Positions 2,733-62,350 are shown, counted from the stretch's first letter. The stretch is DNA of 64,000 nucleotides from an uncultured Clostridia bacterium (GCA_934777435.1 CAKVNK010000001.1:247203-311202), one strand, 5' to 3'. Made by a program: numbers and translations. Notes: generated by a model from the sequence alone, not told the origin.

Positions 2733-4234
2733 TATATTTGTGTATTTATCTTAACATTATTTACGCATTTGTTTGTGTTGTTTTGGCACAAAAATTTTTG
2801 CATATTTTTCAATTACGTGATTATAATACAAAACGCTATTTATCATATTTTAATTTTTGGTTTTGGGGTTTTGAGGCAGTTTTGATAGCGATTTTTGTCG
2901 CACAAATTTTAATTTTTAATTTATTTTTAACATTTTTAATTAATTTAATTTTATTGCCTATTATTGCTATCGTTTTTAACAAAATAATTATCAATCAAAA
3001 AACGCCAATAATCTACACACCAAGATTAAAAAGAATTTATTATTTATCTGTAATTTTATTAATTTTACCGATATTTTTTAAAAAAATGGCTATTTTTAGC
3101 CCTATTTTAATGATTTTTACACCTATTTTTGCAAATTTTTTAAATTTTTTTGATAAAATTAAAAATAAAAAATTTATTCGTTCTGCACAAATAAAGACAC
3201 AAAACAGCCCTGCAAAAATTATTGCAATCACTGGAAGTAACGGAAAAACAACAGTAAAAAATATTTTATTAAATATGCTAAAAACCCAATTTAATGTTGT
3301 TGCTTCACCAAAAAGTTTTAACACACCTTTGGGGCTTGCAAAATTTTTAAATAATACTAATTTAAATGTTGATTATATTATTTTAGAATATGGTGCTAGG
3401 CACAAAAATGATGTTAAAAATTTGTGTAAAATTTATGGTGCAGATTTTGGCATTATCACACAAATTGCACCCCAACATTTGCAAACTTTTAAGACCATTA
3501 AAAACGTTGCAAAAGCCAAACACAAGTTGAGTGAATTTTTAAATTTTAAACCTTGCGTTTTCAATATTGACAACAATTTTATAAAGCAAATGTTTGAACA
3601 AAAAAATGGTGACAAAATTTCAGTTTCTATCAATAGCAAAAACGCAAATTTTGTTGCACAAAATATTGCTGTTAAAAACTTTAAAACTGAATTTGAAATT
3701 TGTTTTAAAAATCAAAAAATTTTGTGCCTCACAAAACTGCTTGGTAAGCACAATGTGACAGATATTTTGCTTGCGTTTGCTTTAGCATTTAGCCTTGGCA
3801 TAAGCACACAAAATTTACAGTCAGCGATTGAAAATTTACAATATATCCCGCACCGACTTGAACACATCAAAGCAGGTATAAATATTTTAGACGATAGTTA
3901 CAACTGTTCGCTTGCAAGTGCAAAAGAATCACTGTCTGTTTTATCTGTTTGCTGTGGCAAAAAAATGGTGGTTACACCTGGCATCATTGAAGCCGGAAAA
4001 AATCAATTTGACATCAATTTTAAACTTGGCAAAATGCTTGCAAAATTTGAAAATATTGTGCTGGTTGGTTTAACAAATAAGCAGGCTTTAACAAATGGAA
4101 TTTTAACTGTTGAGCCAACAAAAAAAATACTGTTTGCCAACAGTTTAGATGATGCAAAACAGTATTTTTCAATTTTAACAAATCAAGATGATACCCTACT
4201 TTTGTTAAACGATTTACCAGATGATTACAAGTAA
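2729..4234 (+). CDS. murF: MurF-like Mur ligase (UDP-MurNAc-tripeptide--D-Ala-D-Ala ligase family) with a polytopic membrane N-terminus
   Basis: P-loop ITGSNGKTT, then SFNTPLGLA, PQHL, GKHNV, HRLE, DDSYNCS and VTPGIIEAG, which track MurF motifs. The first ~160 aa are almost entirely hydrophobic helices. The GTG start overlaps the TGA stop of the upstream hydrolase. Confidence 0.8.
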   Translation: MIYLCIYLNIIYAFVCVVLAQKFLHIFQLRDYNTKRYLSYFNFWFWGFEAVLIAIFVAQILIFNLFLTFLINLILLPIIAIVFNKIIINQKTPIIYTPRLKRIYYLSVILLILPIFFKKMAIFSPILMIFTPIFANFLNFFDKIKNKKFIRSAQIKTQNSPAKIIAITGSNGKTTVKNILLNMLKTQFNVVASPKSFNTPLGLAKFLNNTNLNVDYIILEYGARHKNDVKNLCKIYGADFGIITQIAPQHLQTFKTIKNVAKAKHKLSEFLNFKPCVFNIDNNFIKQMFEQKNGDKISVSINSKNANFVAQNIAVKNFKTEFEICFKNQKILCLTKLLGKHNVTDILLAFALAFSLGISTQNLQSAIENLQYIPHRLEHIKAGINILDDSYNCSLASAKESLSVLSVCCGKKMVVTPGIIEAGKNQFDINFKLGKMLAKFENIVLVGLTNKQALTNGILTVEPTKKILFANSLDDAKQYFSILTNQDDTLLLLNDLPDDYK

Positions 4235-5738: not shown

Positions 5739-7027
5739 TAGCCTAACCTTTTAATTGGATTGATACGTCTAACTTTGATTTGTGTTAAACGTACGCAACC
5801 TTTCATTGCTTCTAAATATTTTTCAACACTCTTTTTATTTTCACAGAAAAGAGATAAAATTGTGTCGCCTTTTTTAACATGGTCCCCAATTCTAACATTT
5901 AAATGCAAACCAATGTTACAATTATGTGTTTCTGCACACAAACGTCTGATAAGTTCGCCCATTAAAAGTGCGTTGATATTGCCAACATAACCATCACGGT
6001 CTGCCTTAAACACGATTGTTTCTTTAGGTGCAAAGAAAGTGCGATTTTTAACAGCAGCAACATCACCATGTTGTGTTTTTACAATATCCAAGAAATGCCT
6101 ATATGCCAAGCCACCATCAAGTGCTGTCACACACATATCATAAGCGTCTTTTTGATTTAAACGTTTATCGGCTTTAAGCATCATTTCAACTGCATATGCT
6201 ATTGAAACTTCACGCAATGTATTGTGTTTGCCATTGAGAACATCAAGTGCATCAACCACTTCAACAGCATTACCAACGCTTTCGCCTATAAGTTGATGAG
6301 TGTTTGTAAGTGCAATTATACACTCAACATTGCATGAAGCAAACATATATTTAAGCAAATCTGCCAATTTGCATGCTTGACTATATTTGCCGATTGCACT
6401 TGCTTCGCCATATTTAACATCAACCAACACAATGTGCGCGTCACTTGTTAACTTTTTGGCAACGATTGAAGCCGCCAAGAAATTGATATTGCTTTCAAGA
6501 TGGTATTTTTCAATAATACTATAAAGGATTGAATCTGCTGGGCAATATTCTTCACCATGTGCCAAAATGCAAGCATTGTTTTTTGCAAGTGCTTTATTGA
6601 TTTGGTTGTATTCCATTGGTTCAAAACCAGGAATTGCTTTAAACCTATCCGCACTGCCGTTTGCAAACACCAAAGATTTGCCAGTTGTTTTTACAATTTT
6701 ATACCCTAAACTGCTAAGCAAAGGAATAAGCACAATGCTAGTGCTATCGCCGATGCCACCTGTTGAGTGTTTTTCAAGCACAACTTCGTTAGCATGGAAA
6801 ACTTTGCCACTGTCACGAATTGCCAAAGCAAGATACAACACTTCTTCTTTTGTCATACCAAACTTATCAAGTGCCAAAAACATATTTTTTGTGTGTTTAT
6901 CCACGCCAAAAGCCATCATATGTTTAACAATAGCATTGTAATCAGCCTGACTGAGAGTTTCTGCCTTTGCTTTTTGCACAATAAATTTGCTCATATTCAA
7001 TGGCTTATTTTCTTTTTCAATCTTCAT
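5738..7027 (-). CDS. pdp: Pyrimidine-nucleoside (thymidine) phosphorylase
   Basis: 429 aa with the EKHSTGGIGDSTS motif and a glycosyl-transferase family 3 layout. AGGGGAAA RBS upstream of the ATG at 7027. Confidence 0.88.
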   Translation of the reverse strand: MKIEKENKPLNMSKFIVQKAKAETLSQADYNAIVKHMMAFGVDKHTKNMFLALDKFGMTKEEVLYLALAIRDSGKVFHANEVVLEKHSTGGIGDSTSIVLIPLLSSLGYKIVKTTGKSLVFANGSADRFKAIPGFEPMEYNQINKALAKNNACILAHGEEYCPADSILYSIIEKYHLESNINFLAASIVAKKLTSDAHIVLVDVKYGEASAIGKYSQACKLADLLKYMFASCNVECIIALTNTHQLIGESVGNAVEVVDALDVLNGKHNTLREVSIAYAVEMMLKADKRLNQKDAYDMCVTALDGGLAYRHFLDIVKTQHGDVAAVKNRTFFAPKETIVFKADRDGYVGNINALLMGELIRRLCAETHNCNIGLHLNVRIGDHVKKGDTILSLFCENKKSVEKYLEAMKGCVRLTQIKVRRINPIKRLG

Positions 7028-7142
7028 AATATTTCCCCTATGTAATAATTTTATATTTATTGTCAGGTTTTGTCAAATTAATTGTTAAATAAAATTATAT
7101 TTTAAGTTTGTTTAATTTTTAGGTTAATTTTTAATTAAAAAT

Positions 7143-7952
7143 ATGTTTATTTACCTTGTTTTGGGCAAAAATTCAGACATGTCAAAATATAAAATAGTAA
7201 ATATTGTAGACCGCATTTTTATTTCAACATGTGTGTTTTTACTTTTCTTTGCTTGGATAAATTTTTATGTTAGAGATTTACGTTTAACTTTTGTTTTCGC
7301 CCTGCTTGCCAGTTTTTCAGTTTGTTTTTTGTTGTTTTTATATTTCAGCAAAAAGCAGACTAAAGAAAACAAAACCAAAGCAAGAATCGGTCTAGTTGAA
7401 AAGCATTTTTTAGCCTTTATTTTGCAGTCAAGCCAAGAAAGATTAGACAGTATATCGCAAGTATATAATACCGAAAAATCTAGCACAAATGGGTTTTTAA
7501 AAAGCAAGAGCAATCTTTATTTTGTGTATACTGAAAATGAAAAATTAGATAAAACCGCCTATTCTAACATTATTGCACAGGCAAAAAATCTTAATTTTGA
7601 AACTCTGTATATAATTTGCGGTGATATTGGTGAGCCATTAAATTTGCAAATTTTTAAAGATAAAAAAGTTAAAATAATCAACAAAACACAACTTCTTGAC
7701 GATTTTGAAAACAAAAATGTGGATATTGTGTCAAATTCAAATTTAAACCTTGCTCCACCAAAAATTAAGTGGATTGACATTGCAAAAAATATATTTGCCC
7801 CACAAAAAGCAAAATCATATTTTGTTTGCGGTTTGGTTTTATTGTTTAGCAGTGTTGTGTTGCCTTACAACTTTTACTATATCATTTTTGGAAGTATGCT
7901 TATGCTGTTTGCTTTAATTTGCAAAATTTTGCCCAAATTTAGCGGTCGTTAG
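7143..7952 (+). CDS. Hypothetical membrane protein (TM helices at both ends, soluble middle)
   Basis: 269-aa ORF with hydrophobic N-terminal (FISTCVFLLFFAWINF, FVFALLASFSVCFLLFLYF) and C-terminal segments. No recognisable family. The start is uncertain (ATG 7143 or 7179). Its 3' end overlaps the convergent desulfurase gene by 14 nt. Confidence 0.55.
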   Translation: MFIYLVLGKNSDMSKYKIVNIVDRIFISTCVFLLFFAWINFYVRDLRLTFVFALLASFSVCFLLFLYFSKKQTKENKTKARIGLVEKHFLAFILQSSQERLDSISQVYNTEKSSTNGFLKSKSNLYFVYTENEKLDKTAYSNIIAQAKNLNFETLYIICGDIGEPLNLQIFKDKKVKIINKTQLLDDFENKNVDIVSNSNLNLAPPKIKWIDIAKNIFAPQKAKSYFVCGLVLLFSSVVLPYNFYYIIFGSMLMLFALICKILPKFSGR

Positions 7953-47156: not shown

Positions 47157-47384
47157 TTAATCAACTGATACAATTTCAGTTTGCATTGCAATGTTTGCAA
47201 TACGATTGCTTCTTTTATCCTTTTTGCCTGACATTTTTTTTAAATAGTCCATAATTTCACACCAAGTGGCATATGTTACCATTTCGCCTTGCAAATCGGC
47301 ATAATGGCTATGCTTTTCGCAGAGCAACTTATAGTCGCCCCTTGAAAAGTTTACCATAACCAAAGTATCTTTTGTTTTATCCAT
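47157..47384 (-). CDS. Small hypothetical protein (75 aa) encoded between rpoB and rpoC
   Basis: AGGAG RBS 5 nt upstream of the ATG. The ORF ends 32 nt before the rpoC start. No family recognised. Confidence 0.6.
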   Translation of the reverse strand: MDKTKDTLVMVNFSRGDYKLLCEKHSHYADLQGEMVTYATWCEIMDYLKKMSGKKDKRSNRIANIAMQTEIVSVD

Positions 47385-47459
47385 TGTTACTCCTATATAT
47401 CTAAACTGTTAAATTTTGTTGTTAACCTATTTAATAATTAACTAAATTATTGTTATTGA

Positions 47460-47494
47460 TTATTCATCAAGGTCATCTAACAATTCAAACTGAC
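47460..47494 (-). repeat. Degenerate duplicate of the rpoB 3' terminus
   Basis: About 26 of 33 nt are identical to 47544-47578. It still encodes ..FELLDDLDE-stop, compared with the authentic ..SELFDDLDE-stop, and is displaced 84 nt downstream. Confidence 0.6.
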
Positions 47495-47543
47495 AGTATT
47501 TTATTTTCTAAAATCCTGAACTCGCTGAATTGTGTTAAGTTAA

Positions 47544-50500
47544 TTATTCGTCTAAGTCGTCAAACAATTCAGACTCGTCAAATGCGGTTGCATTGACATC
47601 ATTTTCATAATTCTTTTGAATATCGTCAAATTCAAGTGTAATGTCTTCAAGGGCTTGTTTATTAACAGGTTCAACTGTTGCAACTTCTTCCCCTTCTTCA
47701 CTCACTTCATTGATTGTAAGTTCGTGATTATCTGCTGTTAAAATCTTAACATCTAAACACAAACCTTGCATTTCTTTAACCAAAACTTTAAATGATTCAG
47801 GCATACCAGGTTCTGGGATAGGTTCGCCTTTAACAATCGCTTCATAAGTTTTGATACGTCCTTCAACGTCATCGGATTTAATTGTAAGCATTTCTTGCAA
47901 CAATCTTGATGCACCATATGCTTCCAATGCCCAAACTTCCATTTCACCAAAACGTTGACCACCAAGTTGGCTACGACCACCAAGAGGTTGTTGTGTGATA
48001 AGTGCATAAGTACCAATGCCACGTGCGTGGATTTTATCGTCAACCATGTGGTCAAGTTTTAACATATACATTACACCAACTGTTGTTTTGTTTTCAAATG
48101 GCAAGCCTGTACGGCCATCATAAAGTTGTGTTTTGCCGTCTTCTGGCAAATTGTTTTCTCTAAGCAATGCTTTAATATCTTCTTCTGTTGCACCATCAAA
48201 TGCTGGTGTTGCAACTTTCCAGTCAAGATGTTTTGCAGCCCAACCCAAGTGAACTTCCAATAATTGGCTCAAGTTCATACGTGAAGGGATACCCAATGGG
48301 TTAAGCAAAATATCAACTGTTTCGCCATTTGGCATATAAGGCATATCGCACTCTGGAAGAACAACTGATACAACACCTTTGTTACCATAACGACCAGCAA
48401 GTTTATCACCTACTTGGAGAACACGTTTTTGTGCGATATAAACTTTTACGCACATATTAACGCCAGCATCAAGTTCGTCTTTATTTTTACGTGATAAGAT
48501 TTCAACGCCAACAACAACGCCTTCTTCGCCGTGTTTAACTTTTAATGAAGTGTTTTTAACTTCTTTTGTCTTTTCACCAAAGATTGCTTTTAAAAGCCTT
48601 TCTTCAGGGGTTAAGTCAGTTTCACCCTTAGGGGTTACTTTACCAACCAATATATCGCCTGGGCGAACTTCTGTACCGATACGAACAATACCATTTTCGT
48701 CCAAATTCTTTAATGCATCTTCACCAACACCAGCAATATCACGTGTGATTTCTTCATCACCGAGTTTTGTTGTGCGGGCTTCTGTTTTAACTTGTTGAAT
48801 ACTGATAGATGTGTATGCATCTTCACGAACTATACGTTGGTTAATCAAAATCGCATCTTCAAAGTTGTAACCTTCCCAGTTCATAAATGCAACTGTCATA
48901 TTCTTACCAAGGGCAACTTCACCTTTATCAGTTGAAGCACCATCAGCAAGCACATCACCGGCTTTAACCTTTTCACCTTTCTTAACAATAGGTTTTTGGT
49001 TGAAGCATGCTTTTTCGTTTGTACGTTCAAACTTACGGAGTTTGTGGTTTACAATGCTACCATCTGCGTATTCCATTGTGATGTAATCAGCAGAAACATA
49101 TTTACATACACCATCTTGTTCAGCAAGGATAAGTGCGCCAGAGTCAACAGCAATTTTATGTTCAACACCAGTACCAACAATAGGGCTGTCACATTTGATA
49201 AGTGGAACAGCTTGACATTGCATGTTTGAACCCATCAATGCACGGTTACCTGGGCTGTGTTCAACAAACGGAATAAGGTTAGCGCCAATAGACAAACATT
49301 GTTTTGGGCTTAATTCGAACAAGTCCACCATTGAACTATCAACACGTTCTGCTTGTCCGTTATGACGGCACTCAATAATGCCAGCAGCGATTGTTTTATC
49401 TTCATTTAAGTCTACTGTTGCAGGTGCAATATAGTGTCCACGTTCTTCATCAGCCATTAAGAACACAATATCGTCAGTAACTTTTCTTGTTTTAGGGTCG
49501 ATCTTTTTAAATGGAGTTTCAATAAATCCATATTTATTTACGCGTGCGTACGCAGCGATAGATGTCATCAAACCGATAGGTTGACCTTCTGGTGTTTCAA
49601 CCAAACAGATACGACCATAATGGCTTGGGTTAATATCACGCACTTCAACTGTTGCACGTTCCTTCTTCACACCGCCTGGGCCAAATGAACTTAAACGGCG
49701 TTTATGCCTTAAACTTGCTGCTGGGTTGATTTGATCCATCAATGCTGAAAGTTGGCTTGTTGCCATAAATTCTTTAAACACTTTGTTGATATGACGAGCG
49801 TTTACAATTTGGCTTGGCGTGATGTCTGTTAAATCACGGCTTTGCAAACTTTCACGCACTTGTGCTTGAAGTTTTGTCATACCACGACGGAATTCGTCAC
49901 GGAGCAATTCACCACATGTTGCAACACGACGCATTGACAAGTTATCAATTTCGTCTGTTTCGCCTAAACCGTCAATAAGGTTCAAGTGATAACTGATTGT
50001 TGCAATCATATCGTCCAAAGTTACTTGGAAATCTTCAAGTTTGTGAGCATTTGCTTTGATTGCTGCTTTCAAACCTTCTTCATCACCTTTGTGTGCTTTC
50101 ATAATTTCTTGAAGCAATGGAAGGTAAACAAGTTCAGTGATACCAAATTCTGCTGGGTCAAGTTTTGCATATGCTTTAAGGTCAACACGTTGGTTACCAA
50201 CAACACGAACAACTTTATCTTCAACCAAAACATCAACTGAATTGATACCAGCGTTTTGAATTGCAACTGCTGTGTCATGGTCAATATATTCGCCTTGGCC
50301 TACAAACATTTTTTTGCCAAGCTTAACGTCTTTTGCTGCAATTTGGTCTGTAATACGGTTAGCAAGTGATAATTTTTTGTTAACTTTAAAACGACCAACT
50401 TTTTCAAGATTGTAGTGTTGTTGATTGAAGAAACGGTCGTTAATATAACTCAAAGTATTGTCTGGGTTAGGAATTTCACCTGGACGTGTACGTCTACCAA

Positions 50501-55852: not shown

Positions 55853-56320
55853 TTATTCATCTATTTGATTTTCTGTTTCGTTTAAGTCAGCACTCTTTAA
55901 TTCTTTAATGCTACCAGCAAGTGACTTATAAATTGTTGCCAATTTTTCTGTTTTAGAAGCAATCTTTTTAAGTTCAAGTTGTTGTATTTTTAACACACAT
56001 TTGCGAATCAAAAAATATTTACTCTTTTTGATTTCAGTGCCACGTCTTTTAATTCTGCCTTCGATTGTGTTTGCAAAGGCTTTGACTGAAACACCTAAAT
56101 CTTTAACCGCTTGCAATAAGTCGTCTTCTTCAGCAAAGTATGAATTTTTAACTTCATCTAAACTGATACGAACATCAATAACCATATATCTCAATGATTT
56201 ATTTTTAAGGTCGTTTCTTTCCATATCGGCAAGTACGGGTTCCATTGCAGATACATGTTTTGTAACAATGTGTGTTAGAGTGTTTTGTTCTTGCACAAAA
56301 CTGTCATTTTCGGTTTTCAT
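55853..56320 (-). CDS. Hypothetical helical protein P4 (155 aa)
   Basis: AAGGAGA RBS and its own consensus promoter. Composition is typical of alpha-helical proteins, rich in K, E and L. Confidence 0.7.
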   Translation of the reverse strand: MKTENDSFVQEQNTLTHIVTKHVSAMEPVLADMERNDLKNKSLRYMVIDVRISLDEVKNSYFAEEDDLLQAVKDLGVSVKAFANTIEGRIKRRGTEIKKSKYFLIRKCVLKIQQLELKKIASKTEKLATIYKSLAGSIKELKSADLNETENQIDE

Positions 56321-56341
56321 AATTCTCCTTTAACCGAATAT

Positions 56342-56369
56342 ATTATAGCACATATAACTTTTTTGTCAA
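56342..56369 (-). promoter_or_regulatory. Internal promoter TTGACA-16-TATAAT with an extended -10 (TGc) for P4
   Basis: Minus strand: TTGACA (56369-56364), 16 nt, TGcTATAAT (to 56342). Confidence 0.65.
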
Positions 56370-56414
56370 CACCCCACCTATCCTGTGTTGCTTTAAACCG
56401 CCATAAAAATAGGA

Positions 56415-56849
56415 TTATTCAACAACAATGCCTTTTGTGTATGGGGCAACAAATTCTTTCATATCTAGGCTTAAATCATAGGCTTCACGCAAGTCGAGAT
56501 GTATTTGTTCTTCCTTTCTCAATTTGATTTTTGAAATCAACTTTGTAAATGGATTTTCAGTTGATTTTATTCTCATATTCAAGGTGTTTACAATCCTTCT
56601 TTGATTGTTTAAAAGCCTTGCACACATGCTGTTGATATCAATGGCATATCCATGTATTTCAATGATTGAACCTGTCTTTTCAATATAACGCATGTAGTGT
56701 TGTATTTCATTAACAAGGTCGCAATCTAAAATTCTATTGTGGTCTGAAAAATATTTGTCATATTTAATCATTAAAACTGCAAGTGTATGTAACTTTTTTT
56801 CAATGTCACTCATCACATATATGTAGTTTTCATATTCACGTTCTGTCAT
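56415..56849 (-). CDS. Hypothetical helical protein P3 (144 aa), paralog of P2
   Basis: GGAGA RBS. It shares I-x-H-x(1,2)-R-Y, F-x-K-[IL]-I-[ST]-K-I-x-L, RE, and the C-terminal [IF]V-x-P-Y-[ST] with P2. Confidence 0.7.
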   Translation of the reverse strand: MTEREYENYIYVMSDIEKKLHTLAVLMIKYDKYFSDHNRILDCDLVNEIQHYMRYIEKTGSIIEIHGYAIDINSMCARLLNNQRRIVNTLNMRIKSTENPFTKLISKIKLRKEEQIHLDLREAYDLSLDMKEFVAPYTKGIVVE

Positions 56850-56875
56850 ATTTTATCTCCATTAAAAGGTTTTTC

Positions 56876-57379
56876 TTAATTATTTGGGGTTGGATTGCCA
56901 CCTTCGTCCATTTGGCAATCTTCTTGTATCGTTTCTTGTTTTGTTTCTGCGCTATAAGGTCTAACAATATCCCTTATTTCATCACATAAAAGGCTGATTG
57001 ATTCAATTTCTTCCCTCATGGATCTTTCTGCAACATATTTATTAAACAAAAGTATTTTTGTGATTATTTTTATAAAACTTTGTTTTGAATATTCTTTTAT
57101 AATTTCTTCAACTTGATTCATTTGCAATTCGTATAATTTAATAATCAAATTGTTTAAAACTTCTGGATACAAGCAAAATTTATTTATATCATTGGCATAT
57201 CTAAGATGATTTATATTTTCCATTATTTCTTCAATGATTTTGCAGGCTTCTGTTCTTTGCTTTTTTTCGTATTTATCTTTAAGCAAATAAATCCTTACTT
57301 CCATAGGATTCAATCTTTTTGAAATGTCTTTTCTTATATATTTAAACATTTCATACACTTTAATTCCACAATGTTTCAT
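56876..57379 (-). CDS. Hypothetical helical protein P2 (167 aa)
   Basis: GGAGGGG RBS, with motifs shared with P3. It has an acidic/Pro tail (QEDCQMDEGGNPTPNN). Confidence 0.7.
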   Translation of the reverse strand: MKHCGIKVYEMFKYIRKDISKRLNPMEVRIYLLKDKYEKKQRTEACKIIEEIMENINHLRYANDINKFCLYPEVLNNLIIKLYELQMNQVEEIIKEYSKQSFIKIITKILLFNKYVAERSMREEIESISLLCDEIRDIVRPYSAETKQETIQEDCQMDEGGNPTPNN

Positions 57380-57393
57380 ATAAGCCCCTCCAT

Positions 57394-57801
57394 TTAATCA
57401 ATTTTTAACACATTTACTTCCACATTATCTTCTTTACCAAAAATTTGTTTTATTATTTTTTTAATCCTTGGCAATGTATATGTAAGCCTAAGCAATCTTG
57501 AATATTCAAATTTGGTTAATATCCTTTCGTCACCAGTGTCTATATTTGAAAATTGAGATTTTATTTTAGCAAGTTTTTCAGTTTCTTGTGCGTAAAATTC
57601 ATCTAATTTTTCTTCTAACTTAATCAAATTATTATACCTAAATCCAGCATCGTCTGATATAGAAATATCAACAGCAAGCTGTTTCATGTCTGCAACTTGC
57701 TTAATTTCTTCATCAACACAACGTTTCTTAATACTGCCTAATGATCCCCTAAGCAATAAATAAAGTTGTTTAATATCTATATCTTTTTTAGTGTTTTCCA
57801 T
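57394..57801 (-). CDS. Hypothetical helical protein P1 (135 aa)
   Basis: First gene after a consensus promoter. GGGG-type RBS. It contains the F-R-Y motif at a position similar to the R-Y motif in P2-P4. Confidence 0.65.
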   Translation of the reverse strand: MENTKKDIDIKQLYLLLRGSLGSIKKRCVDEEIKQVADMKQLAVDISISDDAGFRYNNLIKLEEKLDEFYAQETEKLAKIKSQFSNIDTGDERILTKFEYSRLLRLTYTLPRIKKIIKQIFGKEDNVEVNVLKID

Positions 57802-57928: not shown

Positions 57929-58732
57929 ATGCGAATTTGTAATTTAGCAAGCGGTAGCAGTGGAAATTGCACATATATTGAAGGTGGGTCATCCAAAATT
58001 TTAATTGATAATGGCAAGCCTTTTTCATATATTTTTGACACCCTTAATCAGTTGCAAATCGCCCCAGATAGCATTGATGCTATACTTGTAACACATGAGC
58101 ATAGCGACCATATCAAAGGCATAGAAAAATTTGTTCGCACCTATAATACAAAGATTTACGCACACGTTCAAATTAAAGAAGTTTTGTTAAACCAGATTCA
58201 CGTTGACACTAATAATTTTGTGTTTTATGATAGCGACTTTGATATTGGCGACTTACATATTCAACCTTTCCCACTGCCACATGATAGTAAATTTTGTGTT
58301 GGCTACCGCATAAATCACGAAGATGCAATCGTCACCGTTTGCACTGACTTGGGCGAGTTTTCAGAAGAAACTTTTGAAGTTGTTAAAAACAGTGCAGTTG
58401 TATATTTAGAAGCAAATTATGACCCAGAAATGCTTATGTCCTATCCAGGTTATCCACCATTTTTAAAACGTAGGATAAGTAGTGGACACGGTCATTTAAG
58501 CAACTTGCAATGTGCAAAAGCCATTGAAAAATTGGTTAAAACTGGCACTCGCTTAATTGTTTTAAGTCATATCAGTGAGCACAGCAACACCGTTAACCTT
58601 GCAGTTGGCACAATAGCAAATTATTTAGAAAATAAAAATATAATTCCTAACCGTGATGTTCGCCTAGACATTGCCCATCACGAACAACGTGGAACTATAT
58701 TTAGAATTACACCAACCAGCCAAAAACAATAG
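57929..58732 (+). CDS. MBL-fold metallo-hydrolase (YycJ/WalJ-like)
   Basis: MRICNLASGSSGNCTYIE.. and the THEHSDH zinc motif, 267 aa. Confidence 0.88.
   Translation: MRICNLASGSSGNCTYIEGGSSKILIDNGKPFSYIFDTLNQLQIAPDSIDAILVTHEHSDHIKGIEKFVRTYNTKIYAHVQIKEVLLNQIHVDTNNFVFYDSDFDIGDLHIQPFPLPHDSKFCVGYRINHEDAIVTVCTDLGEFSEETFEVVKNSAVVYLEANYDPEMLMSYPGYPPFLKRRISSGHGHLSNLQCAKAIEKLVKTGTRLIVLSHISEHSNTVNLAVGTIANYLENKNIIPNRDVRLDIAHHEQRGTIFRITPTSQKQ
58676..58726 (+). repeat. Direct repeat copy 1 (authentic 3' end of the MBL-fold gene)
   Basis: 47 of 51 nt are identical to 58882-58932. Confidence 0.85.
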
Positions 58733-58863
58733 TGTTTTGATAACATGGGCAATGTCTGTTTGGGGTCCCCAGCAATGCATAACATAATGGATTTGTTGGG
58801 GTTAAGGAAAAACCGAACTTTAAGGCTTATAATTGCGTAGTTTACACGCAATTTAGCAAAAGT

Positions 58864-58938
58864 GAGCGTTTTGACGCTGCACATCACGAACAACGCGGGA
58901 CCATATTCAGAATTACACCAACCAGCCAAAAATTATAA
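58864..58938 (+). pseudogene. Displaced duplicate of the MBL-fold gene 3' terminus (direct repeat copy 2)
   Basis: It encodes SERFDAAHHEQRGTIFRITPTSQKL-stop, compared with the authentic DVRLDIAHHEQRGTIFRITPTSQKQ-stop. It is followed directly by a strong terminator. Confidence 0.7.
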
Positions 58939-58950
58939 TAACGACATAAC

Positions 58951-58979
58951 AAAAAGATAGGTTACACACCTATCTTTTT
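58951..58979. terminator. Bidirectional rho-independent terminator
   Basis: A5-AGATAGGT-tacac-ACCTATCT-T5, between the MBL-fold locus and the convergent GT80-like gene. Confidence 0.85.
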
Positions 58980-59002
58980 AATATCTACATAACATTATTT
59001 TT

Positions 59003-60790
59003 TTACGCACCTAATACAACTTCATCATATACAGAAGTTTCATTATTGAGTTTGTAATATTTCATTGTGTTTGCGATTGTATCATAAATAGCAATATCGC
59101 AATGTGTTGTATCGTTGTATTCAATCAAAACGCAAGTTTCTGATGCTTCAAAACCTGTTTTATCAGCATTCAAAGTGTTTGTTGACATAAACACTTCAAC
59201 ATTATCTTTATATGATTGGCTAAAACTATCTTTACGAACCTTGATAATAGCACACGTTTTCTCCGCTGTTACAGATAAGAAAGTTGATGATTGATAACCT
59301 GAACCAAATGCTTCTGGATTGAAGAAGAAAATAAGTTCTGCTGGAATTGTTGAATCAATATCAATCAAGCCCAAACTTTCAAGATGAGCACGCTTGCCTT
59401 CAACGGTATCAGTTGGATTCTTTGGGTGACCTTTATAGTAGAATACATAATTTTCTTCACCATAATAAGCCTTTATTGCTTTAACATAGTTATCAAAATA
59501 ATCTGCTTGTTCAGTTGCTGTCCAAGTACCTAAAATAACCATGACTTGTTTATGATCTGCTTCTGCCTTTTCAAACATAGTGTCGCTGAATTTATAAAGG
59601 GCTTTTAAATCGGCCTTTTTAAACCATCTATCAGCAACCATTGCTTCAATTTCCTCGTCAGTTTTGCTTGCGTTTGCTGTATTAACACGTGGGTCAATTT
59701 TAACAAGTAAAGATTTTAAATCTTTAACTTTAATTGCTGTACCTTCTGTTGGTTGAACAAAGTTTGAATATACAGTGCCACCAGCAGTCAATGTTTGTGT
59801 GCCAAGTGTACCATTAGCACGTGTTAACCACCAATCAACATTTGATTCTTCTTTTGCCATAACAAAAGCGTATTCACGTAATGTTCCTGCGTCAATTGTA
59901 AGACCTCTTGTTGATTCAGTTATTTTGCCCTTTTTGGCAACTTCTTTTTTAAGTTTAAAGTAATTTGCTTTCATTGTTTCATATTTTGTTGCATAATTTT
60001 CATTATTTAAATTTTTGTTAAAATAATTGAAAGATGCTGTACCATCTGAAAGCAAAGTAACTTTATAATTTTCTGCCGGAATTCCATTTGCAACAGTTGC
60101 ATCTAGCCAACCATACGCATAATAGTCATTGTAATAAAAGTTAAATTTTGAATTTCTATTTATTTCATACAATTCTTTAACCCAAGCTGATGTGCCTTTA
60201 TACATTTCACGTTGAGTGCTGTTTAAGAACGCGTCTGGTGTGGCAATAGGCATTTCATAAACATTTTTAGGAAGCTTACTCCAATCCCAAGCGCCACTAC
60301 GTTTAAACCACACAAATGTTGGTATTGTGCCTTTATTTGTAATTTCGTCCAATGATAATGTAAACAATGTTACAGGCATTGTCGCTGTGATAGGTGCAAT
60401 ATTGTATTCGTCAGCTGAAAGGTTAACTTTCATTGTTTTTGTTGTGCTGTAAATACCTCTTTTAAATTGCGCTTTAACGGTCATTTTACCATAAAAACCA
60501 TCAATTTCAGTTTTGTTTGCAGCCATTTGGCTTACCTTGTTAATGTATTTCACATTAACCAATTTATTGTTGTGATAAACTGATACTTTAATACTGTCAA
60601 GTTGTTTTGATGCGTTCCAATTAATGTTAATTGCTTGTGATTGGTCAATTTGTGCTGCGTTTGCTTTAATATCAACTTTAAGTGCACAAAAATAAACAAG
60701 CAAGAACACTAAAAGGCCTAAAATTAGTATACCCCCACCCAGTGTCAAAGGAAGCCATACTTTTTTAGGAACTTTTTTTGTTTTTTCCAT
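59003..60790 (-). CDS. Membrane-anchored GT80-like glycosyltransferase (putative sialyltransferase) with an N-terminal Ig-like domain
   Basis: N-terminal TM helix (WLPLTLGGGILILGLLVFLLVYF). Motifs parallel the Pasteurella PM0188/PmST1 sialyltransferase as I recall it: TLLSDGTASF vs LYDDGSMEY, ILGTWT vs FTGTTTW, YYKGHPKN vs YFKGHPRG, IPAELIFF..GSGYQSSTFLS vs SFEVLMM..GGVASSLYFS. Confidence 0.55.
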   Translation of the reverse strand: MEKTKKVPKKVWLPLTLGGGILILGLLVFLLVYFCALKVDIKANAAQIDQSQAININWNASKQLDSIKVSVYHNNKLVNVKYINKVSQMAANKTEIDGFYGKMTVKAQFKRGIYSTTKTMKVNLSADEYNIAPITATMPVTLFTLSLDEITNKGTIPTFVWFKRSGAWDWSKLPKNVYEMPIATPDAFLNSTQREMYKGTSAWVKELYEINRNSKFNFYYNDYYAYGWLDATVANGIPAENYKVTLLSDGTASFNYFNKNLNNENYATKYETMKANYFKLKKEVAKKGKITESTRGLTIDAGTLREYAFVMAKEESNVDWWLTRANGTLGTQTLTAGGTVYSNFVQPTEGTAIKVKDLKSLLVKIDPRVNTANASKTDEEIEAMVADRWFKKADLKALYKFSDTMFEKAEADHKQVMVILGTWTATEQADYFDNYVKAIKAYYGEENYVFYYKGHPKNPTDTVEGKRAHLESLGLIDIDSTIPAELIFFFNPEAFGSGYQSSTFLSVTAEKTCAIIKVRKDSFSQSYKDNVEVFMSTNTLNADKTGFEASETCVLIEYNDTTHCDIAIYDTIANTMKYYKLNNETSVYDEVVLGA

Positions 60791-62117: not shown

Positions 62118-62194
62118 AGAGATGTAGCTCAGCAGGTTAGAGCACCACCCTGATAAGGTGGGGGTCGGTGGTTCGAGTCCACTCATCTCTACCA
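62118..62194 (+). tRNA. tRNA-Ile (anticodon GAU), CCA encoded
   Basis: Manual cloverleaf: acceptor AGAGATG/CATCTCT, D-arm TAGCTCAGCAGGTTAGAGCA, anticodon stem CCACC/GGTGG with loop CTGATAA, T-arm GGTGG-TTCGAGT-CCACT, and ACCA. Confidence 0.9.
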
Positions 62195-62199
62195 GAAGC

Positions 62200-62228
62200 A
62201 AGTGTTTGACATCGTCAAGCACTTTTTT
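62200..62228 (+). terminator. tRNA operon terminator
   Basis: AAGTGTTTGAC-atc-GTCAAGCACTT (11 bp, one G-U pair) followed by T6. Confidence 0.8.
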
Positions 62229-62350
62229 CTTTTATGAAACAAGTGCTAAAAATTTATTGTTAAAAACAAGATTTTAGCAAAGCAAAATATGTCATCTTTC
62301 AAAATCACAAACTTCGTAAAAGACAAAATATTATTAAAAAATAATAAAAA

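Follow-up and report, generated by a model that had tools for sequence, protein, structure and literature searches.

A Small Structured Module and a Duplicated Gene End in Gut Clostridia and Their Phages: Evidence for an Apparently Undescribed Family of Mobile Elements

The MBL-Fold Gene and Its Duplicated End

The DNA we have analyzed (the window) is an AT-rich stretch of 64,000 nt, part of the core chromosome in a lineage of uncultured gut Clostridia. The genes present are housekeeping genes. The nearest assemblies bear the labels uncultured Clostridia, Christensenella sp. UBA4626 and Ca. Onthoplasma. One of the genes codes for a metallo-hydrolase with an MBL fold, a protein with more than 5000 homologues and a conserved C-terminus (RLDIAHHEQRGTIFRITPTSxK). 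The end of this gene is found twice, and the features around it are shown in Table 1.

Table 1. Features of the MBL locus, with positions in the window. The slash in the junction segment marks the insertion point.
Feature	Position	Strand	Basis
MBL-fold metallo-hydrolase gene (267 aa), target gene, ends in copy 1	57929..58732	+	ORF call; Pfam Lactamase_B_2, 3.7e-21
Junction segment a/b (AGACATT/GCCCAT), insertion junction, left arm of 13-bp stem	58666..58678	+	Inverted repeat; L218 compared with L216
Copy 1 (b1) of the gene tail: last 18 codons and stop, now the translated end	58672..58731	+	Sequence
Linker x (GTGTTTTGATAAC), TTTGAT core, homologous among filled MBL loci	58732..58744	+	Window compared with L001 and with L218/L002
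Segment a' (ATGGGCAATGTCT), perfect reverse complement of the junction segment, just 5' of M	58745..58757	+	Inverted-repeat search
M, conserved structured module of about 115 nt	58758..58877	+	Covariance model R1, 117.9 bits, E 4e-24
Copy 2 (b2): displaced original gene tail, untranslated	58878..58937	+	Sequence; comparison with empty alleles
Intrinsic-terminator-like hairpin and T-run (AAAAAGATAGG...CCTATCTTTTT), 3' of copy 2	58951..58979	+	Read from sequence

A repeat search gives a direct repeat of 65 nt (58667–58731 and 58873–58937) with 86% identity and a spacing of 206, while anchored extension gives 58672–58726 and 58878–58932, with 50 of 55 positions identical. The duplication of 51 nt, the last 17 codons, described in a first-pass annotation of this DNA is found where it was placed, with its four differences (T/C, A/G, T/C and T/C). 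All of them are synonymous, and both copies code for HHEQRGTIFRITPTSQK. Four random substitutions would all be synonymous with a probability of 0.0014, or 0.007 if only transitions are considered. The frame of copy 2 contains no usable in-frame start codon, and a TAA is present in the same frame at 58780–58782. A hairpin orthologous to the one which follows copy 2 stands after the single gene end in the empty alleles described below. Judged from its sequence, it is the original, intrinsic-terminator-like terminator of the MBL gene; a simple terminator scan did not flag it.

The spacer between the two copies had been described as less AT-rich than its surroundings and as containing several stems. 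Its GC content is in fact 0.41–0.43, as compared to 0.26–0.28 in neighbouring intergenic DNA, and the stems are present. Another structure had been missed: copy 1 is enclosed by a perfect inverted repeat of 13 nt, with AGACATTGCCCAT in the coding region and ATGGGCAATGTCT before M. ARAGORN finds no tRNA or tmRNA in the spacer.

Two other regions of the window should be mentioned. Directly upstream of the MBL gene, and divergent from it, there are four consecutive small ORFs (155, 144, 167 and 135 aa) in the minus strand, at 55853–57801. One of them has been tested and has no Pfam match; similar unannotated small ORFs are found at the corresponding position in the loci of relatives. At 62156–62298 (minus strand) there is a match to the Rfam family HPnc0260, a Helicobacter antisense RNA, with 60 bits for a gathering score of 59. 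It overlaps a tRNA-Ile gene in the other strand (62118–62194), and this borderline match is probably driven by the tRNA.

Filled and Empty Alleles

The tail duplication is also found downstream of the orthologous MBL gene in several relatives: L001, L092, L002, L218, L004, L083/84, L213 and L214/215, whose MBL proteins are 75–94% identical to that of the window. L005, L006, L081/82, L085/86, L087 and five contigs of the L218 species lack this arrangement. An assembly error, which had been considered as a possible source of the repeat, is excluded because the same architecture appears in at least nine independent assemblies.

Protein P0002, with 267 aa, allows a direct comparison. In L216, L217, L219, L220 and L221 its gene is followed by an intergenic region of 94 nt (the empty allele). 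In this allele CATTAACTA is directly followed by AAAAAATTTTTT. In L218 the identical protein is accompanied by an insertion of 206 nt, with a perfect repeat of 63/63 nt (the filled allele). The empty sequence is split here by TTTGATTGT, ATGTGCAATGTCT, GTTT, module M and a perfect second copy of the 63 nt tail. The sequence after copy 2 in L218 is the one found after the single gene end in L216 and the others. Since strains with an identical MBL protein carry either the empty site or the 206 nt insertion, the insertion has been gained or lost as a unit within one protein-identical population. Two proposals of the first-pass annotation agree with this comparison: copy 2 is the original gene end, since the empty alleles continue exactly as the sequence after copy 2 does, and the incoming DNA regenerates the end of the gene while the original one is displaced. 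The perfect repeat of L218 could also have its origin in gene conversion. With b1 taken as belonging to the element, the L216/L218 pair is seamless. We have observed no excised circle and no de novo insertion of M.

Many filled and empty pairs are also found between near-identical phages. In these pairs, which are not isogenic, 4–11 nt differ at the junction, so they are not seamless. Two of the “empty” alleles, L204 (1–105) and L137 (5950–6065), keep the last 20 nt or so of M (ending in GCGGACTTTGCGACGA and GGAGGTGGCTGCAACG, respectively), which act as the ribosome-binding region of the next gene. As these alleles keep the 3' end of M, the module can be lost by internal deletion, with its tail left in service.

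The order of the two tails is not constant. L083 has the order a-bA-M-bB, while L213 and L214 have a-bB-M-bA, with flanks which otherwise match: The MBL tails on either side of M have been exchanged between strains. As the orders are swapped, both tail alleles must circulate as functional gene ends, and this exchange explains a divergence limited to synonymous changes with no need for translation of copy 2. Across nine loci, the tail copies have 54 synonymous nucleotide differences and only 8 nt in non-synonymous codons, all of these in the last few codons before the stop. Translation of copy 2 by tmRNA-like tagging, translational bypass or a separate small ORF has been rejected: There is no start codon, a stop codon lies upstream, and the synonymous pattern is accounted for by allele swapping. 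We have also rejected a TR/VR pair of a diversity-generating retroelement (DGR), since the differences are synonymous and not adenine-specific, and no reverse transcriptase is found in the window ORFs tested or in the clusters of ORFs neighbouring M.

Structure of Module M

The window copy of M has 120 nt and a fold z-score of -2.6, and it is the only R1 match in the 64,000 nt. The module contains a GGGG-N-CCCC hairpin, followed by GGGG-ARAGGAR, a domain closed by a long-range helix and a GACG(C/A) 3' end; the consensus may be summarized as ..GGGGcCCCC...GGGGaaAGGAg...cGACGa. In an alignment of 46 sequences, 94.5% of the cells are paired, as compared to about 48% when the partners are slid. 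The same alignment has 222 compensatory cells, and none of 500 shuffles reaches the observed values: The fold is maintained by compensatory changes. It is also strand-specific, since the stems contain 34 GU/UG pairs and only 5 AC/CA pairs. The first-pass annotation took a conserved, covarying structure as a sign of a 3' UTR element rather than an insertion. The structure does covary, but the conclusion that there is no insertion does not stand, given the filled/empty polymorphism.

The 3' junction of M is precise, with b starting directly after GACG(A/C), while the 5' junction is imprecise, with 1–8 extra nucleotides or a linker. The two ends, GGGG... and ...GACGA, are not inverted repeats. 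A conserved micro-ORF inside M was also considered and rejected, as the reading frames vary in length and are missing in AT-rich copies.

A check against Rfam, which had been suggested for the window, has provided no family for the spacer. With Rfam 15 and the gathering score, no family matches M in the window or in five phage loci. Nothing relevant to M appears at E<=10 over 58400–59100, and there is no match to M at E<=1 in seven loci which carry it. BLAST of M gives three matches in annotated phages, all of them unannotated, and none in plasmids. In the literature on RNA-guided tyrosine recombinases, CIMEs and structured phage repeats we have found nothing which matches M, and the same result was obtained with the motif string.

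The window contains a second duplicated gene end, which had been tentatively attributed to the same process. The 3' end of rpoB (..ESELFDDLDE and stop) is repeated about 90 nt downstream as ..QFELLDDLDE and stop, with mostly synonymous differences, at 47440–47600 (minus strand), between rpoB and a small ORF at 47157–47384. The repeat starts with a CTGAATTGTG-like sequence, whose reverse complement, CACAATTCAG, is found in the spacer. The duplication is real and similar in layout to that of the MBL gene, but model R1 finds no M there.

Distribution of M

Many copies of M are found elsewhere. The exact two-part pattern detects the motif in four other metagenome contexts, and R1 gives 17 matches among 90 chromosomal or metagenome sources, with further copies in L011, L028, L005, L003 (nested) and L088. 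With a looser pattern, at least 120 loci are found in a viral collection, some of them with only the 5' half of M; with R1, the first 80 of these phage-contig loci give 59 matches (E<0.01). M is a large family, present at many unrelated sites. A miniature non-autonomous element was among the possibilities first suggested for the spacer, and both the conserved fold and these further copies speak for it.

Some copies of M are flanked by long repeats. In L089, M lies behind a tRNA-Arg gene, and the last 26–29 nt of the tRNA, up to CCA, are found again 3' of M. In L005 the target is an ORF rich in Cys and Gly, with a repeat of 44/44 nt. The repeat flanking M in L028 is 60/62, and a phage portal gene has a tail repeat of 111 nt. 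Tandem [b-M] arrays are found in L177 and L171, nested insertions in L003 and in L112/L128/L179. The array in the phage contig L177 (7043–8040) consists of four units, each with the 111 nt portal-gene tail and M, and a fifth tail. The units differ at synonymous sites, with a few non-synonymous changes in the downstream copies. The native sequence after the last tail starts like the 5' end of M, so an older decayed copy is possible.

In phages, M usually fills the space from a stop codon to the next ribosome-binding site, and an SD-like GGAG in its 3' tail precedes the following ATG by about 13 nt. The orientation is the same as that of the flanking ORFs in a ratio of about 2:1; in L160, six copies run antisense to the capsid/portal operon. 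Of 124 phage copies, 10 have a repeat anchored at the end of M, as compared to 7 in the control, and the phage copies placed between stop codon and ribosome-binding site have no long repeat. Long repeats (13–111 nt) are found where M entered a gene, a tRNA or a spot close behind a stop codon, a pattern which selection for an intact gene would leave.

Several other observations were made in these genomes. A third copy of the 3' part of the tRNA-Arg of L089 (45 nt, from the anticodon loop) is found at 4190–4234 of the oriented sequence, 1.3 kb downstream of the M insertion, where it flanks a GNAT gene. It was probably left by a different island, of the integrase type, which had inserted at this tRNA. 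These genomes and phages are rich in REP-like palindromes (GTCATTCTGAGCG...CGAAGAATC and GTCATTGCGAGGC...GCCGTGGCAATCC), and M is found inside or beside them in L003 (4802–5500), L011, L090, L160 and L142; in L160 and L142 the inner loop of the palindrome is replaced by M.

Truncated copies lack either end of M: L204 and L137 have only the 3' tail, while L125 (minus strand, 3905–3945), L207 (minus strand, 920–970) and L129 (450–490) have the 5' half alone. This half, the GGGGNCCCC hairpin and GGGGAAAGGAG, is found immediately upstream of an ATG, which in L125 opens a major-capsid-like ORF, and it appears to serve as a leader hairpin with a ribosome-binding site.

A Guide-Like Segment at the Left Junction

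Segment a' of the window forms a Watson–Crick run of 13 with the junction segment, and none of 300 control windows has a run as long. Seven of the ten repeat-bearing insertions of M contain a segment of this kind, with 7–13 nt which are the reverse complement of the left junction: The run has 13 nt in the window and L218, 11 in L004, 10 in L083, 9 in the portal gene and 7 in the tRNA. Where it is present, a' always ends 0–4 nt before M and always spans the junction. It also follows the synonymous variants of the gene, with GCCCAT/ATGGGC in the window, GCACAT/ATGTGC in L218 and ATCGC/GCGAT in L004. On the other hand, no a' is found in the repeat-bearing cases L028 and L185, and pairing between the 5' and 3' flanks of M in general is not above the control. 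Since a' is absent in these two cases and flank pairing is not general in the phage copies, we infer a guide role and do not take it as established. The geometry of a' would be that of an element-borne guide which pairs with a cleavage or target site.

Search for a Mobilizing Enzyme

The 150 clusters of ORFs found within 2.5 kb of M copies correspond to phage structural proteins; an IS110 transposase, a Mob_Pre and an integrase appear once each. No transposase, integrase or reverse transcriptase is consistently found near M in these clusters, and none is present among the 10 window ORFs tested. As to integrases, none is found in the tested window ORFs and one in the clusters neighbouring M. 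Y1_Tnp and OrfB_IS605 are not among the top families of the clusters. A role of M as scaffold of a TnpB or IscB guide RNA was rejected, as there is no such protein in the 150 clusters.

The integrase is that of L091, where M is found between a MobL relaxase and a tyrosine integrase in an integrative mobilizable element. It is the sole protein of the Phage_integrase family in the neighbour clusters, and it has not been typed as IntI. This copy of M is placed just after a stop codon, like others, and not at the boundary of the element. M has been discarded as an oriT for the MobL relaxase, since it is common in phage late operons and is usually found directly after any stop codon. Beside the integrase (6850–7340), L091 contains five copies of TTGATGTCAA-type repeats, which are likely arm-type sites, and a structured stretch of about 170 nt which ends in a tRNA-like GGGTCGGTTCAATCCTACCA and a terminator; ARAGORN makes no call there.

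Proposed Explanation and Alternatives

We consider it rather probable that the segment 58732–58937 is an insertion of about 206 nt, due to a small non-autonomous mobile element with M as its core, which entered the MBL gene at AGACATT/GCCCAT. The moving unit would be formed by the gene tail b, a short linker, the 13 nt of a' and M. After its entry at this junction, copy 1, either brought in or duplicated, would form the end of the gene, and the former tail with its terminator (copy 2) would be pushed downstream, where it would be untranslated. Segment a' may pair across the target junction, as a guide which sets the left boundary and the target; comparable pairings would be those between guide and cleavage site in IS200/IS605 ends and between EBS and IBS in group II introns. 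An enzyme whose gene is located at another place may recognize M in the form of a folded single strand. The antisense copies of L160, together with the strand-specific fold, favour recognition as single-stranded DNA over an obligatory role in mRNA, although M may also function as RNA.

A more specific proposal is that M, together with a', represents a new class of guide-bearing mobile elements. A folded strand of about 115 nt, either DNA or RNA, would carry a reprogrammable antisense segment of 7–13 nt which pairs across a junction near the 3' end of a gene; the 3' end of M would be joined there by a trans-acting enzyme of a type hitherto not associated with such elements or by its own catalysis, and the displaced tail would be resynthesized, so that the insertion would be phenotypically silent. 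We regard this proposal as doubtful, with a low probability of being correct.

Among the other explanations, the one with most weight, still an unlikely one, is that M is primarily a functional RNA whose mobility is secondary: a stabilization or processing element of 3' UTRs or intergenic regions, a self-cleaving ribozyme or a very small intron-like element. The strong covariation, the strand-specific fold with many G-U pairs, the preferred orientation of about 2:1 and the precise placement in phages between a stop codon and the next ribosome-binding site, with an SD-like GGAG in the 3' tail, are what such an RNA would have. The coding sense is also kept in both tail copies, and the pairing of a' extends to both sides of the junction, which would be expected of an internal guide. 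If M were intron-like, a' could act as a group I internal guide (P1/P10) which aligns the end of the 5' exon (a) with the start of copy 2. Splicing is not needed, as copy 1 has its own stop codon, and we know of no self-splicing core with a length anywhere near 105–120 nt: The known ones are far longer. The synonymous pattern is explained by allele swapping, some downstream copies of L177 have non-synonymous changes, the six copies of L160 are antisense to their operon, and a threshold as loose as E<=1 gives no match to a ribozyme or intron of Rfam. The precise 3' and imprecise 5' junctions, together with the RNA-like fold, would also suit a SINE-like retroelement, whose RNA is copied into the target by target-primed reverse transcription with a reverse transcriptase acting in trans. 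Staggered nicks would then account for lengths which range from a duplication of 13–111 nt to a replacement of 4–11 nt. We find this improbable: None of the 150 neighbouring clusters is a reverse transcriptase, M has neither a 3' tail nor a recognizable internal promoter, and truncated copies miss either end, so there is no bias towards 5' truncation. To our knowledge, such an element has no bacterial precedent.

A remnant att region was the other possibility put forward for the spacer, as the scar of a classical integrase acting at the 3' end of a gene: the attL and attR of a deleted island, similar to a CIME, with only the attP arms left. It is true that a gene end is restored and the old one moved away, that the insertion at the tRNA-Arg resembles an att site in the T-loop, at a tRNA which has an additional 45 nt repeat from another island, and that M is found between a relaxase and a tyrosine integrase in L091. 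Against this stand the presence of a module of about 115 nt at many unrelated sites, with some 120 copies in phage late operons and other places where no integrase recurs, the position of M in L091 away from the element boundary, the absence of a flanking repeat in most copies and the guide-like 13-mer, which it leaves unexplained. Covarying helices are not, as far as we know, a property of attP arms, and none of the nine filled MBL loci contains a larger element. An integrase scar is as improbable as a SINE-like origin. Local tandem duplication by replication slippage, or an artefact of assembly, with no element involved, might be thought of in view of a direct repeat 206 nt apart and the tandem [b-M] arrays of L177 and L171. 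It is effectively refuted: The spacer is not a local copy but matches a family found at about 100 other loci, and the architecture recurs in independent assemblies.

Comparison with Known Systems

M resembles the ends of IS200/IS605 elements, integrative elements which restore gene ends and attC-like sites, but it fails the defining tests of each of them. Like the ends of IS200/IS605 and of their non-autonomous derivatives (PATEs), which are handled as single-stranded DNA by Y1 HUH enzymes, M has a subterminal hairpin, specific to one strand, whose foot is formed by a C-run and a G-run. In seven of the ten repeat-bearing cases this hairpin is preceded on its 5' side by a short segment which would pair with the left cleavage or target site, with insertion after the paired sequence; the donor site would be restored precisely upon excision, and there is no short fixed target duplication of the DDE type. 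Instead of the 4 nt of IS200/IS605, the guide-like segment of M has 7–13 nt; it spans both sides of the junction and is separated from the cleavage site by 26–111 nt of host sequence, which gives the long repeat. M also differs in that there is no TnpA or TnpB nearby, its two structured domains are unlike each other, the filled and empty pairs of phages are not seamless and no conserved target motif is found. At the right end of M we have identified no counterpart of the hairpin and guide of the left.

In integrative elements at the 3' ends of genes and tRNAs (attL/attR, CIMEs), as in M, the incoming DNA supplies a 3' end, so that the gene stays intact, and the original one is displaced downstream; the tRNA case, which ends exactly at CCA, is also shared. 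M is different in its size (about 150 nt), the lack of an integrase, the dozens of sites, the covarying fold and the absence of the repeat in most cases. Integron cassettes with attC sites have, like M, a conserved structure with a variable sequence, strand specificity, a position right after an ORF, a closing helix which holds a conserved 3' site and arrays of [cargo-site] units. M contains no R''/R' boxes (RYYYAAC/GTTRRRY) and has no IntI or attI, it has an extra 5' hairpin and a G-tract, and what it carries as “cargo” is the end of the target itself, in a further copy.

REP/BIME sequences and REPINs, which depend on RAYTs, are also small, abundant structured repeats found just downstream of genes. 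They are palindromes of 20–40 nt, while M has a three-part fold of about 115 nt, is found in phage genomes and is associated with long duplications of target ends. Group I and group II introns share with M an element-borne segment which pairs with both sides of the junction (IGS P1/P10 and EBS/IBS, respectively), but M has no intron core and no Rfam match, is 4–5 times too small and is found in a gene which needs no splicing. Finally, M does not correspond to a classical MITE of the DDE type: There are no terminal inverted repeats, and direct repeats are either absent or of 13–111 nt, not of a fixed length.

Conclusions

In summary, M is apparently a large family of small mobile elements, undescribed up to now, found in gut Clostridia and their phages. 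If this is true, the gut Clostridia of humans and animals and their phages contain abundant small structured mobile elements which appear to be uncatalogued. They would spare their host either by landing in the few nucleotides between genes or by bringing a replacement gene end, and a single covariance model would recognize duplicated gene tails with spacers rich in GC and hairpins in these genomes. The complement of the junction suggests that a target may be chosen by base-pairing, without a linked protein gene. Several genome-editing systems which have recently come into use are based on this principle. M may also, with a modest probability, be an insertion system guided by base-pairing which is new in kind. 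If the guide-bearing class is real, it would provide a compact natural system for DNA insertion directed by base-pairing.
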